Assembly (NCBI GenBank): GCA_040386275.1
Contig: JAZKFU010000003.1
Span: 112,554 to 172,382 of the forward strand
Reading direction: 5' to 3'
Source of the DNA: Patescibacteria group bacterium
GTDB lineage: Bacteria; Patescibacteriota; Minisyncoccia; Phycocordibacterales; UBA918
DNA: 59,829 nt
Below are positions 20,007-58,704 of the stretch, in pieces (positions within the stretch are counted from its first letter, which is position 1; each line of letters begins with the position of its first letter). The notes beneath the pieces were generated by a model that was not told the DNA's origin, ran no database searches, and was given only the letters and a program-made list of their open reading frames with translations. Made by a program: the position numbers and the translations under genes.

Positions 20007-20046
20007 ATATAAAAACCTTTCAGTTAACTGAAAGGTTTTTATATTT
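20005..20046. terminator. perfect 42-bp palindrome, bidirectional terminator
   Basis: AAATATAAAAACCTTTCAGTT|AACTGAAAGGTTTTTATATTT. Confidence 0.8.
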
Positions 20047-20172
20047 GAGACCGAGGCGGGATTCGAAACTTACAGTTTCAGTACAGGTTGTCGCTACTTT
20101 TGAAAAGTAGCTGGCAACCTTTTCGAATCCCGCCACCAAAATAAAAACACCCGAGACGGGTGTTTTTATTTT
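20044..20172 (-). repeat. tRNA-Cys trailer element (terminator, inverted T-arm copy, module B, 24-bp direct repeat of tRNA 3' end)
   Basis: TTTGAGACCGAGGCGGGATTCGAA at 20044-20067 and 20170-20193; TTCGAATCCCGCC inverted copy at 20122-20134. Confidence 0.85.
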
Positions 20173-20173
20173 G

Positions 20174-20246
20174 AGACCGAGGCGGGATTCGAACCCGCGA
20201 ATGGCGGTTTTGCAAACCGCAGCGTTAGCCCCTTCGCCACCCGGTC
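20174..20246 (-). tRNA. tRNA-Cys(GCA)
   Basis: Reverse complement GACCGGGTGGCGAAGGGGCTAACGCTGCGGTTTGCAAAACCGCCATTCGCGGGTTCGAATCCCGCCTCGGTCT folds into a cloverleaf. Confidence 0.95.
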
Positions 20247-20338
20247 AAGACCACTACTCTATCACCATTCAATGACTTTATAAACCCTAATTGTTGTGGA
20301 ATACTTATATGAAGTACTAAACTTTCATCTTTACCATC

Positions 20339-20821
20339 ATGATAAGAAAACGTAAATGGACAAATGAAGAACTAATTTTGGCCGTTGAAAATTCAGCGAG
20401 TATTCGTGCTGTACTCATTAAAATAGGACTTGTTCCTGCAGGCGGAAACTACAGACAAGTTTCCCAAACAATTAAAGATTTAGATATCGATATTTCTCAT
20501 TTTACCGGCATGGGCTGGAGAAAGAACAGAACATTTGAATTTATACCCCAACGCGAATTGAAAGATATTCTTGTAGCAAATTCTGATTTTCAAAGTTTTA
20601 AACTTAAAAAAAGATTATTTGTTGAAGGATTAAAGACACCAAAATGCGAAATCTGTCACTGGGCAGAAATGTCAAAAGATGGTAGGATTCCTGTCGAACT
20701 GGATCATATTAATGGCAATCGATTCGATAATAGAATTGAAAATTTAAGGATTCTTTGTCCAAATTGTCACAGTCTTCAACCCACACATCGTGGTATGAAC
20801 CAGAAAAAGCCAGGGTGGTGA
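20339..20821 (+). CDS. HNH endonuclease (CxxC...HNH...CxxC) whose 3' end overlaps tRNA-Leu
   Basis: KCEICHW...ELDHINGNRFDNRIENLRILCPNCHS. Confidence 0.9.
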   Translation: MIRKRKWTNEELILAVENSASIRAVLIKIGLVPAGGNYRQVSQTIKDLDIDISHFTGMGWRKNRTFEFIPQRELKDILVANSDFQSFKLKKRLFVEGLKTPKCEICHWAEMSKDGRIPVELDHINGNRFDNRIENLRILCPNCHSLQPTHRGMNQKKPGW

Positions 20822-20892
20822 AATCGGTAGACACGCAACACTTAAAATGTTGTGATCGAAAGGTCATGCGGGTTCAAGTCCCGCCCCCGGCA
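20809..20892 (+). tRNA. tRNA-Leu(TAA)
   Basis: GCCAGGG TG GTGAAATCGGTAGACAC G CAACA CTTAAAA TGTTG long variable arm GCGGG TTCAAGT CCCGC CCCCGGC A; A4.C69 mismatch. Confidence 0.93.
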
Positions 20893-21091
20893 CAACGCTA
20901 TAAACCGCAAGCTAATGCTTGCGGTTTATAGCGTTGTGCCGGGGAGCAAGCAAACTGCTTTGCTTGCGTGCGGGACTTGAAAGACGGAATCATGTCACTT
21001 AGCGACAGATGAGTCGGGGTCGACAGCACTTAGTAGATTTGAAACGTAGTGAACAAATATACTTAGTGACTGGTGACCAAGTCCCACCTCC
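20893..21091 (+). repeat. tRNA-Leu(TAA) trailer element (28-bp-arm palindrome, 25-nt bulged hairpin, inverted T-arm copy, module A, degenerate direct copy)
   Basis: Arms 20885-20912/20917-20944; hairpin 20945-20969; GCGGGACTTGAA 20970-20981; AGACGGAATCATGT...GTGACC; CAAGTCCCACCTCC. Confidence 0.85.
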
Positions 21092-21396
21092 TACATCACT
21101 TTCCAATTTCCATTTATATATTCAGCCACTTGCTTCCCTCCCAACGGCATTCCGTCACCATCAAACCAAACTTCATCTACAGTCATTCTTCCCACTTTAT
21201 TTACCACATAATCAAATTGCCGAACATTTCCTTCTGCATCGGGCTCACTTAGTTGAACTTCAAGCTCAACTAAAACACCTTCTTCGTTATATTTTTCTTT
21301 TTTAATTACCGTATCAGCTCCATCAATTAATTTATCAATATATCCTTGAACTTTTTCGAGCGTTGGTGGAGCATTGAATGTTTCATTATTTTCCAT
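21091..21396 (-). CDS. hypothetical acidic protein
   Basis: 101-aa ORF with protein-like composition; no recognised motif. Confidence 0.6.
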   Translation of the reverse strand: MENNETFNAPPTLEKVQGYIDKLIDGADTVIKKEKYNEEGVLVELEVQLSEPDAEGNVRQFDYVVNKVGRMTVDEVWFDGDGMPLGGKQVAEYINGNWKVM

Positions 21397-21475
21397 ATTG
21401 AAATTGTAACACTAAGAATCATACCTTGTTAAATTAACAATAATCTTGTACACTTTGGCGCACAACCTAACATTT

Positions 21476-21548
21476 GCGCCCTTAACTCAGTTGGTAGAGT
21501 AGCTCCCTCTTAAGGAGACGGTCCAAGGTTCGAATCCTTGAGGGCGCA
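21476..21548 (+). tRNA. tRNA-Lys(CTT)
   Basis: GCGCCCT TA ACTC AGTTGGTA GAGT A GCTCC CTCTTAA GGAGA ... CAAGG TTCGAAT CCTTG AGGGCGC A. Confidence 0.93.
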
Positions 21549-56620: not shown

Positions 56621-56849
56621 TGTGAATTATAACTCCTACTGATCTTTCCTAAAGCAGAAATCCGCCTCAGGAGGCGGATTTCAAGTAGACAGTAAAGTAT
56701 CACTATCTTAAAATCCCCCGCCTAGTGCGGATGAGATTGAAAGCGAGCAGAAGCTACTCCAGGTCGTGATGGTTGCTGTGTTCATCATAGTGAGATTATT
56801 GTAGCAGGATTAAAATGTATGTCTATAACCCATATGGTATTTTTGTATT

Positions 56850-57551
56850 TTAACTTGTTGTAGTTTGAGCTGCATTTAAAGATTTTGATTGAGTCATGAC
56901 ATTAGAAATATGTTCATGGGGCGAAATTTCAACGGTTTGACAAAGGTAAGATAATTTTCCAATTGCCATGAGCAGACGTTGCTGACTGATAACAGGAGTA
57001 CCATAGGACTTTATATTTTCTACCAGCTCATGAGCATATACTACATTTTTAATCCTCTCTGTTTTAAAAACACCTGAGCCGGTAAATACTACCAAGTTAA
57101 TAAAATTTTCCTCTACAAACGGCATTAATTTTTTTAAAGTTTCAACGTGCCCATAATTTTGCCACAACGGATTTCTTAAAATAAATTTCTTTCCGGTTAA
57201 ATACCTTGCTGTCCACTTTTCATTACTTTTACTTCCAAAAATCCAACCTGAACTGTCTTTGGTTTCTATCACAAAAATACCAAATCGTGACACTACTACA
57301 TGATCTATTTCGGTTGAGGTTGAATGGGATGATGGCAATATCAAATTATTATAAATAAAATATTCATTATGATTTAAACCTTCAGCCAATATCCTCACCA
57401 CCCTTCTTTCTGAGTCGTTTAAATTTTCAGCATAGCATCTATGTCCATGACCGGAATATATAGTACGTTTTGTAAAAAAAATATTTTTATTAGCACTTTT
57501 AACAAGTAGGTAGAGGGAAAGAATGATTATTAAACTAACAACAATATTCAT
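56850..57551 (-). CDS. NERD (nuclease-related) domain protein with N-terminal TM
   Basis: TEIDHVVVSRFGIFVIETKD.SGWIFG, RNPLWQNYGHV. Confidence 0.9.
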   Translation of the reverse strand: MNIVVSLIIILSLYLLVKSANKNIFFTKRTIYSGHGHRCYAENLNDSERRVVRILAEGLNHNEYFIYNNLILPSSHSTSTEIDHVVVSRFGIFVIETKDSSGWIFGSKSNEKWTARYLTGKKFILRNPLWQNYGHVETLKKLMPFVEENFINLVVFTGSGVFKTERIKNVVYAHELVENIKSYGTPVISQQRLLMAIGKLSYLCQTVEISPHEHISNVMTQSKSLNAAQTTTS

Positions 57552-57603
57552 ATATTTAATATGATAGCAGTGGATGGAGATGATCTGGTGTATTTGTGTA
57601 CAC

Positions 57604-57937
57604 GGTCGGGTGCTTGAGGGCAGGCTCGGTCACGAGTTACTAAGTATATTTGTGCATTGCGTGCAAATTCTACTAGGTGTTCTCGACCCGAGAAACAGTG
57701 CCTAAACACTGTTTCTCCCGCTGTTTCGGCTCTAGGAAGAGCCAAAACATGCCTGTGCCTTTCGTTTCTTACAGAAACTGTATACCTTGTCGCTACTTTT
57801 ACATTTCATTCCAAAGTAGCTGGCAAGGTCTTGCAGAGTGACATTGGGTCACTCTTCACCCGCACGTAACTGACATTGGTCAGTTGCTCCCCAAGCACCG
57901 GGTACAGAAATAGCCCCTTGCGGGGCTTTCTGTACGC
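57604..57937 (-). repeat. tRNA-Phe trailer element containing the 25-nt hairpin, module B and module A plus a distal direct copy of the tRNA 3' end
   Basis: Hairpin 57864-57888; module B 57761-57830; module A 57628-57760; GGTGCTTGAGGGCAGGCTC (57609-57627) versus tRNA GGTGCTTGGGGGCGGGCTC (17/19). Confidence 0.88.
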
Positions 57938-58012
57938 GGTGCTTGGGGGCGGGCTCGAACCGCCGACCCCTTCCTCTTCAGGGAAATGCTCTACCAACTG
58001 AGCTACCCAAGC
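57938..58012 (-). tRNA. tRNA-Phe(GAA)
   Basis: Reverse complement GCTTGGGTAGCTCAGTTGGTAGAGCATTTCCCTGAAGAGGAAGGGGTCGGCGGTTCGAGCCCGCCCCCAAGCACC. Confidence 0.95.
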
Positions 58013-58109
58013 GTGCTGTGGCGGACTATGATGGCTTTTGACCTTCTTAGAACGTACCCGCCATTGTACCTGTTTCTTGATTTATTTCAACCAAATATCA
58101 AGGCATGTT

Positions 58110-58403
58110 CTACTGCTGTCCCTGATAGATTTTTAACGCTTCCTGGAGAAGTTCGTAGTTACTCGTACTTTGGGTCTCAGTGCCTCCAAAATTGCTCATA
58201 AAGGCATTGTAGAGGTAATAGTAGGCAAAGAGTGGTAAGCCGAGCAATACCACGTACCAGGCGATTTTAAACCAAAATTGCCGAATCTCCCTGCGGTCAA
58301 TTTTTTGTAATAATTCGTGATTAGCTACGAGCAACTCATGGTTTGCCTTGGTAAGCTCTAGAATGGTTTCTGCCTCTTGTTTTTCCGGTAATTCTGGATT
58401 CAT
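58110..58403 (-). CDS. small single-TM hypothetical protein
   Basis: ILELTKANHELL..I.RR...WFKIAWYVVLLGLP. Confidence 0.7.
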   Translation of the reverse strand: MNPELPEKQEAETILELTKANHELLVANHELLQKIDRREIRQFWFKIAWYVVLLGLPLFAYYYLYNAFMSNFGGTETQSTSNYELLQEALKIYQGQQ

Positions 58404-58449
58404 ATCAATACAGTATAGCAGAGGAAATTATGCTAAAATGCCCGCACTT

Positions 58450-58521
58450 GCCCACATAGCTCAATGGATAGAGCTACTCCGTCCTAAGGAGAGGATCCTG
58501 GTTCGATTCCGGGTGCGGGCA
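58450..58521 (+). tRNA. tRNA-Arg(CCT)
   Basis: GCCCACA TA GCTC AATGGATA GAGC T ACTCC GTCCTAA GGAGA GGAT CCTGG TTCGATT CCGGG TGCGGGC A; A5.C68 mismatch. Confidence 0.9.
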
Positions 58522-58704
58522 CATTGATGCAAACTAATAAACACTCTTCAAAAAGAAGAGTGTTTATTAGTTTAGCAAGCAACCTGCGTTGCTTGCGGGC
58601 ATCAATGTGAGACGGAGTCATGTTTTCTCCTCCTTCCTAGAGGAGGAAACAGACGAGTCCGGTGAGGAAGTTCTTATGAGTGTCAGCGAATTAGAAACTT
58701 GACC
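58522..58704 (+). repeat. tRNA-Arg trailer element (long palindrome, 25-nt hairpin, module A variant)
   Basis: Hairpin 58574-58598; AGACGGAGTCATGT at 58610; TTATGAGTGTCAGCGAATT shared with the Val element. Confidence 0.85.

Follow-up and report, generated by a model that had tools for sequence, protein, structure and literature searches.

Do the long, hairpin-rich trailers behind the tRNA genes of a Patescibacteria group bacterium belong to these genes, or are they mobile elements that enter their ends? The window, i.e., the whole stretch of DNA that was analyzed, comprises 59,829 nt (GCA_040386275.1, contig JAZKFU010000003.1, positions 112,554–172,382). ARAGORN and Rfam confirmed nine tRNAs in the window at the positions first assigned to them. 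A first-pass annotation had described one order of parts behind seven of the nine (Cys, Leu-TAA, Ser, Glu, Val, Phe and Arg), and each part was indeed located in the sequence: a palindrome whose arms are A/T-rich around a GC core, an inverted copy matching either the tRNA 3' strand or the trailer, a hairpin of ~25 nt, common modules and a distal direct copy. The hairpin is present in six of the seven trailers, as had been claimed, and is lacking at Cys. This arrangement was not found in the window behind the Lys and Leu-TAG tRNAs. The tRNA-Leu(TAG) gene has a leader–trailer stem, so long processing stems do occur in this genome. An eighth copy, which the annotation had missed, is located behind ftsZ (42020–42174; gene identified by its FtsZ domains), and the description "behind tRNAs" was thus too narrow. 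The cassettes of the window are as follows.

20044–20172, minus strand: Cys cassette, class i, without hairpin; palindrome 20138–20172, X' (reverse complement) 20121–20137, module A 20066–20120, displaced tRNA 3' end 20044–20065 (22 nt identical to 20170–20191); the original terminator (20006–20045) lies beyond the displaced copy.
20875–21091, plus strand: Leu-TAA cassette, class i; gene end R* 20875–20894, palindrome 20895–20934, X'a 20935–20944, hairpin 20945–20969, 12-nt complement 20970–20981, module B 20982–21077, decayed distal copy 21078–21091; the locus forms an inverted repeat with 28-bp perfect arms.
41962–42174, plus strand: ftsZ cassette; target segment in the coding sequence 41962–41974, stop codon 41999–42001, small hairpin 42002–42019, 13-nt complement 42020–42032, module B 42033–42145, displaced old end 42146–42174; original terminator beyond it, 42188–42214.
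44255–44444, plus strand: Ser cassette, class i; R* 44255–44273, palindrome 44277–44308, X'a 44309–44319, hairpin 44320–44345, complement 44346–44355, module A 44356–44423, distal copy 44424–44444.
44639–44848, plus strand: Glu cassette, class ii, at the tRNA 3' end; tRNA end and trailer 44639–44649, palindrome 44650–44693, hairpin 44694–44717, complement 44718–44728, module B 44729–44837, short distal copy 44838–44848.
44854–44916, plus strand: remnant of an older class i Glu cassette, 3' of the previous one; decayed terminator 44854–44875, X'a 44881–44889, hairpin 44890–44916.
50035–50245, plus strand: Val cassette, class i; R* 50035–50054, palindrome 50055–50087, X'a 50088–50098, hairpin 50099–50123, complement 50124–50134, module 50135–50227, diverged distal copy 50228–50245.
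57607–57957, minus strand: Phe array; R* 57937–57957, palindrome 57902–57936, X'a 57889–57901, hairpin 57864–57888, X'b and module C 57830–57863, module A 57764–57829, older B-type module 57629–57763, distal copy 57607–57628.
58520–58703, plus strand: Arg cassette, class ii; tRNA end and trailer 58520–58530, palindrome 58531–58573, hairpin 58574–58597, 12-nt complement 58598–58609, module (B-type 5' domain, variant 3' domain) 58610–58703.

The module A pattern gave three exact matches versus 0 expected, and the 3' end of module B four versus 0.11. The modules are shared beyond chance, as proposed, but "module B" did not hold up as one unit, being composed of a 5' domain and a swappable 3' hairpin. 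The Val and Arg modules carry variant 3' domains; that of Val combines a B-type 5' domain with a V-type 3' domain, which also occurs in L031 and L020. The Phe array contains the additional module C, together with module A fused to the older B. An intact counterpart of the class i Glu remnant was found in L120 and L118. The palindromes described as terminator-like are present, but a simple terminator scan flags only some of them, because in the others the T-run belongs to the stem. In order to evaluate the inverted copies, 142 tRNA/tmRNA genes in Patescibacteria DNA were searched for at least 11 of 12 matches to the reverse complement of the 3' end, 20–260 nt downstream. Such a copy was found in 89 of the 142 genes versus 6 in the upstream control. 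In the window, the scores were 11–12 for the seven tRNAs and 9, the background value, for Lys and Leu-TAG.

One conserved module is present at more than 100 Patescibacteria genome loci, so the further copies anticipated by the annotation do exist. Of 107 module loci, approximately 68 have a tRNA on the same strand no more than 400 nt upstream. The contexts are tRNAs of many isotypes, tmRNA, ftsZ, rpsI (S9) and rplL (L7/L12), all highly conserved genes that are presumably highly expressed as well, and the module is always oriented in the sense of the target gene. The term "tRNA-targeting system" does not fit these data: the same cassettes are found behind ftsZ here and, at other loci, behind tmRNA, rpsI and rplL, and the ftsZ copy alone indicates that the element is not tRNA-specific. 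The cassettes showed no match to any Rfam 15 family. With covariance models, only the tRNAs of the window reached the gathering score, a search of all cassette regions at E up to 10 returned nothing but generic hairpin (miRNA-type) noise, and 20 further loci gave only tRNA, tmRNA and one group I intron. The families covered include self-cleaving ribozymes, HEARO, Y RNA, RNase P and tmRNA. The module had no matches in 2.9 million viral contigs, and no paper describing the family was found. The cassettes are thus apparently an undescribed family of small, folded, non-autonomous insertion elements.

Cassettes have three entry points within the last 4–37 nt of a gene: tRNA position 56 (T-loop), the tRNA 3' end and a site directly ahead of the stop codon. 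Their parts follow in the order replacement gene end, palindrome, usually a hairpin (9-bp stem, 4-nt loop), ~12-nt complement and module. Counted from the insertion point, the complement corresponds to target positions −2 to +10 in reverse-complement form. The 12 nt ahead of the module match upstream sequence at 10 or more of 12 positions in 39 of 61 instances (shuffled best, ~7.7), with the match beginning at −4, or at −20/−22, from the tRNA end; the hairpin stands directly upstream of the complement in 42 of the 61. In 19 loci, the distal copy begins at C56, which is the final C of GTGACC, and the proximal copy at −18/−20 from the tRNA end, while a second class is located at the 3' end. The cassette terminus coincides exactly with the start of the downstream gene copy, and the direct repeat, 4 to ~37 nt long, reaches to the gene end. 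Target sequences vary by locus, and the only recurring part is the junction base (C in GTGACC-type modules). The displaced original gene end remains downstream and decays; the gene stays intact because its last nucleotides are supplied anew by the cassette.

Proximal and displaced gene-end copies differ mainly at synonymous sites. At the 3' ends of ftsZ and rplL, the differences are synonymous in those displaced copies that have kept the reading frame (L038, L082), and the proximal copies of the window and L070 show nine differences in 27 nt, likewise synonymous. The duplicated ftsZ coding end includes the stop codon. The mainly synonymous differences indicate that the gene-end copy arrived with the cassette. 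The earlier suggestion that the element copies or rebuilds host sequence on insertion is thus not supported for the proximal gene end.

The module begins with a 5' hairpin of three helices, whose internal loops are fixed; a long 3' hairpin with imperfect pairing comes next. RNAalifold predicted 27 pairs with compensatory changes in 14, and 98.2% of the cells in the module alignment are paired. There were 160 double compensatory changes versus 44 ± 7 in shuffles (0 of 500 reached this value) and at most 16 when partners were slid. The exact Watson–Crick partner of helix Pa was found in 70 of 75 instances versus 22.8 under label shuffling. The covariation check that had been suggested thus strongly supports the fold. 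A G–U pair is kept in 46 of 48 instances, which makes the fold strand-specific. The C-GNA-G loops presumably recall stable DNA mini-hairpins, and the conserved G–U pair and internal loops are what we take to be RNA-like features. The trailers may alternatively be read as structured RNA acting on pre-tRNA. No promoter-like site was found ahead of the modules, and each module is positioned behind a terminator-like palindrome.

Comparison of orthologous sites in close relatives supported the proposal of a non-autonomous mobile element at tRNA 3' ends, with both empty and filled sites and turnover of cassettes. The tRNA-Ser site is empty in the relatives L118 and L119, and the Glu cassette is missing in L126 (~96% relative). 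In L128 (~96% relative), a different Arg cassette with canonical B occupies the same place, and Phe is followed by a B cassette alone, whose palindrome and hairpin are not those of the window. The ftsZ cassette has diverged in relatives while its flanks are conserved. Nested arrays are common; nested or tandem ones were found in L031, L068, L011, L003, L073, L098 and L120. Module pairs within a genome share the helix type in 11 of 23 cases versus 18% between genomes (p = 0.004). Separately, in L118 the same tRNA-Glu end is occupied by a real island, which has a large serine recombinase.

The annotation had also suggested a search for co-occurring HUH, tyrosine recombinase, reverse transcriptase or HNH genes. 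Pfam analysis of 50 window ORFs revealed no recombinase, transposase, HUH protein or reverse transcriptase in the 60-kb window, and ORF clustering at ~105 loci showed no such enzyme enriched in ~900 kb of DNA flanking the other loci. No circular or excised cassette form was seen. The explanation that we prefer, and hold with moderate confidence, is a family of ~110–330 bp non-autonomous insertion cassettes that move as a folded single strand, choose the target by base pairing and use an enzyme acting in trans. Judging from the close relatives, new cassettes would enter the reconstituted site, so that the newest would lie nearest the gene, and modules would fuse through loss of whole palindromes; repeated entry and palindrome loss would together produce the "modular" arrays. 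With less certainty, the cassette may travel between genomes with its own gene end and insert as a folded single strand of DNA or RNA. Its internal complement might pick the target by pairing with the sense strand, and the catalyst would probably be an enzyme supplied in trans, with no gene in the window. A point against this explanation is retargeting, in which complement and gene end would have to change together.

Spread by natural transformation and homologous recombination only, without a dedicated enzyme, is rather unlikely. The conserved gene would provide the left homology arm, the short duplicated gene end would provide the right one, and the module would be kept for a cis RNA role (RNase III or processing site, 3' stabilizer, insulator), useful or selfish. 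All targets are very conserved genes, the imported gene ends differ mainly synonymously, no enzyme was found, and the sharing of helix types within genomes fits gene conversion. However, the insertion point is base-fixed relative to the complement and the module end at dozens of unrelated loci, which free crossovers would not produce, and the class ii right arm of 4 nt is too short for homologous recombination. The lack of promoter-like sites and the position behind palindromes speak against the cis RNA role. An immobile cis-acting RNA or long terminator structure co-evolving with each tRNA would account for a conserved fold directly 3' of the gene, and the stem at tRNA-Leu(TAG) is in line with it; nevertheless, it is scarcely credible given the empty site, the cassettes missing or swapped at ~96% genome identity, the nested arrays and the ftsZ coding end duplicated with its stop codon.

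Integrative elements of tRNA/tmRNA genes and their integrase-less derivatives (cis-mobilizable elements, att-repeat arrays) resemble the cassettes in layout: they too enter the T-loop or the 3' end, restore the gene with a carried 3' end, leave the displaced end as a direct repeat and form arrays by successive insertions. The direct repeat of the tRNA 3' segment with a T-loop or 3'-end crossover, by which such elements are recognized, is present here. The cassettes could then be att scars or attP-only mini-elements (cis-mobilizable-like) of integrase-driven elements at these tRNA sublocations, which we consider improbable. T-loop and 3'-end crossover positions were reportedly described for integrases by Williams in 2002, and the insertion positions agree with them; the arrays of decaying repeats and the L118 island also fit. 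On the other hand, the cassettes have only ~110–330 bp, no integrase was found in or beside them (window Pfam; ORF clustering of ~105 loci), and the viral contigs contain no match. A double-stranded att site has no need of an inverted target copy inside the element or of a single-strand fold that covaries, and one integrase would have to serve many tRNA isotypes as well as tmRNA and the protein-coding ftsZ, rpsI and rplL. It is more doubtful still, and highly improbable, that the cassettes are SINE-like retroelements. In that case, a transcript would read from the gene end through terminator, complement and module into the displaced gene end, and this RNA would be copied into DNA from a nick at the junction, with priming on the displaced gene end and with the module as binding site for a reverse transcriptase encoded elsewhere. 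The succession of paired flanks, small stem-loops and a long hairpin is reminiscent of retrons or of 3'-UTR recognition elements, the module is always sense-oriented, and the cassette stops exactly where the downstream gene copy starts. Yet no reverse transcriptase was found beside the eight window copies or enriched at other loci, which also speaks against a retron ncRNA. Because a strong terminator-like palindrome comes first, few transcripts should extend over the full length, and neither a homopolymer tail nor a 5' truncation series is present.

Among other known systems, IS200/IS605 and their palindrome-associated derivatives are likewise hairpin-rich, non-autonomous and orientation-specific, and their logic, by which a short stretch next to a hairpin recognizes the cleavage or target site through base pairing, is similar. 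The left end of IS200 also bears a terminator-like hairpin. In the cassettes, however, pairing involves ~12 nt or more, mostly 3' of the insertion point, so that the element contains the target sequence a second time. No conserved tetra- or pentanucleotide is evident among the targets, there is no Rfam match, and no TnpA(Y1)/TnpB was found in the window and locus DNA. Integron attC sites, CTX phage and other dif-integrating elements share with the cassettes conservation of structure over sequence, fixed mismatches or bulges, a reconstituted target and tandem arrays. A target-mimicking stem and one strand exchange would give precisely the observed order of gene end, rest, complement, loop, gene end. 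In the cassettes, in contrast, the "loop" is a highly conserved ~100-nt module, and dif-like sites are absent. An integron cassette was rejected, as the module ends lack R''-L''...L'-R' core sites (GTTRRRY) and the window contains no IntI. BIME/REP, BOX and Correia elements are also short, modular, hairpin-forming, present in many copies per genome and located after genes, often as or beside terminators, but they have no locus-specific gene complement, duplicated gene end or insertion point inside the gene, and their sequences are unrelated. The cassettes are not MITEs: there are no terminal inverted repeats (the left end is the gene end, the right end the module, and the inverted copy is internal), and the direct repeat of 4 to ~37 nt is not a fixed-length target-site duplication. 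TIGR-Tas arrays of candidate phyla radiation bacteria consist of tandem 36-nt units with dual spacers beside a Tas protein (PMC12045711). Their architecture is unrelated to the single 110–330 bp cassettes, which have no Nop-domain protein.

The ~12-nt reverse complement may tentatively be regarded as a true guide for the trans enzyme or the folded module, with insertion 2 nt away from where the pairing ends on the module side, although we find this doubtful; the complement may instead simply lengthen the palindrome stem or result from the insertion chemistry. If it is a true guide, the cassettes would be nucleic-acid-programmed and widespread in Patescibacteria, a natural gene-drive-like overwriting of essential gene ends, distinct from CRISPR-associated transposons, IS110 bridge RNAs and the TnpB/IscB nucleases of IS200/IS605. 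Cassette orientation tracks the target gene and not the GC-skew strand, which does not fit a simple mechanism on the lagging-strand template.

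The nine tRNAs of the window were identified using ARAGORN and Rfam, their trailers were read one by one and every part was placed by exact string search. The common grammar that the first-pass annotation had ascribed to the trailers was borne out at seven of the nine tRNAs (Cys, Leu-TAA, Ser, Glu, Val, Phe and Arg), and no part of it was found in the trailers of the Lys and Leu-TAG tRNAs. In each of the seven trailers, a palindrome whose core is GC and whose arms are rich in A/T comes first. After it stands the reverse-complemented tRNA 3' strand (Cys, Leu, Ser, Val and Phe) or, at Glu and Arg, the reverse complement of the final tRNA bases together with the trailer. 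The hairpin of about 25 nt described earlier in six of the seven trailers was confirmed; it is absent at Cys. Shared modules (A, B and C) come next, and the tRNA 3' strand is then repeated as a distal direct copy. In the window, the pattern of module A gave three matches with 0 expected and the 3' end of module B gave four with 0.11 expected. In the Patescibacteria DNA examined, 89 of 142 tRNA and tmRNA genes had an inverted copy of their own 3' end (at least 11 of 12 nt) 20–260 nt downstream, compared with 6 in the upstream control. The inverted-copy score was 11–12 for the seven tRNAs of the window and 9, the background value, for Lys and Leu-TAG. The grammar is far from chance.

A tRNA-like non-coding RNA was also considered for these cassettes. 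It requires an acceptor stem formed with the distal copy and was rejected, since at Leu the distal acceptor part decays and the complement still matches the proximal copy, that is, the gene end carried by the cassette. The tRNA-Leu(TAG), which has no cassette, shows a leader (21552–21574) and a trailer (21646–21668) that form a 23-nt stem, 87% complementary, prolonging the acceptor stem and resembling a double-strand processing stem.

A mismatch search of the window for the end of module B revealed an eighth copy (42033–42145) directly after the Tubulin/FtsZ-domain gene. This copy follows the common grammar: the module is preceded by a 13-nt reverse complement (42020–42032) of coding positions 41962–41974 and followed by a degenerate ftsZ end. 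In other genomes, whose contigs and loci are labelled with L numbers, the module was found after tmRNA (L031, L005, L072 and L099), at the same codon of ftsZ (L033, L038, L068, L053, L055 and L070) and after the genes of ribosomal proteins S9 (rpsI; L006, L095 and L097) and L7/L12 (rplL; L082). Thus, the tRNA-specific targeting proposed earlier did not hold; the cassettes target conserved genes at their 3' ends, not tRNAs as such. The target genes are probably highly expressed and frequently the last in their operon.

The existence of further copies was confirmed by at least 117 matches to a degenerate pattern of the module B 3' hairpin in one-genome-per-species contigs. About 106 of the matches listed are true copies, nearly all from Patescibacteria; the carriers among them include Kaiserbacteria, Paceibacterota, Nomurabacteria, Yonathbacteria, Lloydbacteria and Saccharibacteria. 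About 68 of the 107 listed copies lie no more than 400 nt downstream of a same-strand tRNA, with many isotypes represented. No module matches were found in 2.9 million viral contigs. In agreement with the earlier proposal, no Rfam family was recognized: only tRNAs and hairpin noise were obtained in the cassette regions, both at the gathering score and with E up to 10. No description of the cassette family was found in the literature, and the TIGR arrays that are likewise reported from Patescibacteria are unrelated to it (PMC12045711).

The gene upstream of the cassette had no Rfam match at four loci (L047, L107, L020 and L039), two of which (L107 and L020) also had no ARAGORN call. At all four, the complement and the distal copy resemble a tRNA 3' end, and L107, L020 and L039 share the motif GTTC(T/G)AACATCGT upstream of the cassette. 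On a short Kaiserbacteria contig (L001), a group I intron (2360–2602, minus strand; Rfam, 54.6 bits) was found just upstream of two tandem cassettes.

RNAalifold analysis of 48 sequences predicted 27 pairs in module B, 14 of them with compensatory changes. Its 5' domain is one stem in which fixed loops (GGA opposite GA, and AUG opposite C) separate two 3-bp helices, Pa and Pb, with a variable hairpin as the cap; GG and then an extended, imperfectly paired hairpin, GGTCGAGAACACTTAGTA ... TACTTAGTGATTCGTGACC, make up the 3' part. Apical loops are frequently of the C-GNA-G type. Covariation was strong, with 160 double changes compared with 44 ± 7 in shuffled data (reached in 0 of 500 shuffles). 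In this structure 98.2% of cells were paired, and sliding the partners by 1–3 columns left at most 16 double changes. The exact partner of helix Pa was present in 70 of 75 instances, compared with 22.8 after label shuffling; Pa counts in the set used for RNAalifold and pairing are biased, since that set was pre-selected on this helix. A G-U pair is conserved in 46 of 48 sequences, so the fold belongs to the strand with the sense of the target gene. In the three window copies of module A, covarying stems (AGGTTG/CAACCT, CTGTTG/CAACGG and ACCTTG/CAAGGT) and an additional hairpin with a UGUAA/G loop were noted by eye. No sigma-70-like site was found in front of the modules. With its strong covariation and little variation across classes, the fold of about 100 nt ranks as a strong candidate for a novel RNA or DNA that binds protein or is catalytic.

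Short motifs resembling known ribozymes and RNAs were seen by eye in the cassettes (CAGAUGAGUC; GGGUGAA...GCAAG; GGUC...GACC). Hammerhead and hairpin ribozymes, the k-turn, the RNase P S-domain and Y RNA were rejected, as the core positions misfit by eye and there were no Rfam matches. An 11-nt identity with the LbCas12a direct repeat (CTACTAAGTGT), on the opposite strand of module B (for example, window 44786–44800), was considered a coincidence; the repeat hairpin is otherwise missing.

The position of the cassettes relative to their targets was found to be regular. The 12 nt directly 5' of the module were complementary to upstream sequence at 10 or more positions in 39 of 61 instances, with a shuffled best of about 7.7. 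Measured from the tRNA end, this match starts at −20/−22 when the insertion is in the T-loop (class i) and at about −4 when it is at the 3' end (class ii). In 42 of the 61 instances the complement is directly preceded by a hairpin with a stem of about 9 bp and a loop of 4 nt (CTGC in 18 of the 42). At 19 loci the final C of GTGACC, the module end, is also the first base of the distal copy, and the proximal copy begins at −18/−20, corresponding to tRNA position 56 in the T-loop. The match and copy-start positions together indicate that, on the intact target, the complement reaches from 2 nt left of the insertion point to about 10 nt on its right. Class-i cassettes have an extra acceptor-strand complement 5' of the hairpin, continuous with the palindrome. 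The class-ii repeat is short, about 4 nt (CACA), as these cassettes insert with just 3–4 nt of the tRNA gene left and supply a trailer of their own. S9-type cassettes have a different module end and junction base, and the shared junction C is therefore a tendency and not a rule. An IS91-type GTTC target was ruled out by its absence from the ftsZ junctions. In two orthologous tRNA-Arg cassettes (L100 and L102), hairpin, complement and module hardly differ, and a G-to-A trailer change has its compensating change in the complement. The intervening palindrome is nevertheless a wholly different sequence, which suggests wholesale replacement of palindromes.

To find relatives of the window genome, homologues of the thioredoxin-reductase-like neighbour gene and an exactly matching glutaredoxin gene were used. 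The comparison for empty sites gave a positive result at tRNA-Ser: in L118/L119 (about 82% identity) this tRNA joins the sequence downstream of the distal copy of the window, and 44274–44421 is missing, so the site is empty there. In L126 (about 96% identity), the class-ii Glu cassette is absent and the left part of an older class-i element is fresher, which made it possible to recognize window positions 44854–44916 as a decayed remnant of that element; in L120 these two Glu elements occur in the opposite order. In the same relative of about 96% identity (L128), tRNA-Arg is followed by a different trailer, palindrome, hairpin and complement with a canonical B module. Its tRNA-Phe has a B cassette alone; in the window a newer C+A cassette is fused to that older B module, apparently following the loss of an intervening palindrome. 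L070, about 96% identical over 7 kb, differs from the window in the stretch running from the ftsZ junction to the module, with the distal copy and downstream sequence conserved. Tandem or nested cassette arrays were found at L031, L068, L011, L003, L073 and L098. Genes adjoining the arrays vary among the relatives of about 96% identity: L128 has no NERD-domain gene (window 56850–57551, minus strand), L126 has no methyltransferase gene (window 43223–43834, plus strand) and L070 has an additional small membrane-protein gene (window about 38040).

The first-pass annotation had suggested that the gene end is copied or rebuilt from the host on insertion. The data do not support this: the cassette brings its own copy and therefore probably moves between genomes. 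The proximal copies of ftsZ in the window and L070 show nine differences in 27 nt, synonymous only, and the complement co-varies. At ftsZ (L038) and rplL (L082), the proximal and displaced 3' ends differ synonymously wherever the displaced copy, the old gene end downstream of the module, is still in frame. Decay of a displaced copy would not leave such a pattern; the two diverged while functioning as gene ends in separate lineages. Pa types are alike within a genome in 11 of 23 pairs, compared with 18% between genomes (permutation p = 0.004); leaving the window out gives 5 of 17. In the window, Pa is GAC/GTC in the Leu, ftsZ, Glu and Arg modules, and in the relatives it is ACC/GGT in the ftsZ and Arg modules. 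This agreement suggests that copying or gene conversion within genomes takes place too.

The cassette was shown to be an insertion element that restores the gene it enters; its architecture is fixed and its single-strand fold is conserved. The presence and absence of cassettes among relatives contradict a non-mobile cis-RNA. Less probable readings are that the cassettes spread solely by transformation and homologous recombination, that they are integrase scars, or that they are a SINE-like retroelement. The complement would select the site by pairing with the sense strand, because it extends across the target as it stood before interruption and the junction keeps a constant distance from the module. 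If a circular or folded single strand bore the gene end, palindrome, complement and module, one strand exchange at the junction would give the observed order and also reconstitute the target for the next insertion. This logic is that of integron attC sites, CTX-type elements at dif and IS200/IS605 guide-hairpin recognition. Like tRNA-targeting integrative elements, the cassettes restore the gene, repeat the displaced end and form arrays; by their features they belong neither to these elements nor to MITEs, attC sites, retrons, TIGR arrays or any Rfam family. As regards IS200/IS605 derivatives, target sequences differ between loci, with only the shared junction base recurring, and no TnpA or TnpB was seen in the DNA examined. 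We file them as site-specific, non-autonomous insertion elements; a new kind in which target choice is programmed by a nucleic-acid guide is a rather improbable reading. If the insertion reading is true, one active, unannotated family would fill a large share of the non-coding DNA in very small Patescibacteria genomes, overwriting the ends of essential genes with imported copies and replacing terminators. Cassette turnover would be faster than that of the rest of the genome, which bears on annotation, strain typing and the reading of horizontal transfer in uncultured lineages. Since the 12-nt complement is fixed relative to the insertion point, target choice by base pairing is directly testable.

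Analysis of 50 ORFs of the window using Pfam revealed ordinary chromosomal genes and one HNH_3 ORF, with no recombinase, transposase, HUH protein or reverse transcriptase. When 1,957 ORFs of the other loci were clustered, only housekeeping families and two LAGLIDADG-like groups emerged. None of the gene types suggested earlier for a co-occurrence search (HUH, tyrosine recombinase, reverse transcriptase or HNH) was enriched at the other loci. The candidates considered were as follows:

20339–20821, plus strand: free-standing HNH_3 endonuclease ORF (160 aa) between tRNA-Cys and tRNA-Leu
L002, L011, L024, L089, L092, L104 and L106, near tRNAs: LAGLIDADG-like ORF family 1 (about 220–230 aa; ORF clustering)
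L011, L030, L043, L048 and L071, near tRNAs: LAGLIDADG-like ORF family 2 (about 220–230 aa; ORF clustering)
L118 (JAYSYC010000062), 3835–10601: serine-recombinase island with a 580-aa large serine recombinase and a UvrD-type helicase

The HNH_3 ORF, which ends with a stop codon that overlaps the start of tRNA-Leu(TAA) by a few bases, was rejected as the mobilising enzyme, having no homologues in the other approximately 105 loci. The LAGLIDADG ORFs were rejected because they occur inconsistently, near tRNAs in seven and five loci. The island of L118 was rejected, being a separate, larger element of 6.8 kb at the same tRNA-Glu end. It sits exactly between the tRNA-Glu 3' end and the class-ii cassette and is flanked by the imperfect repeat TCAC(C)ATCG.AGA.
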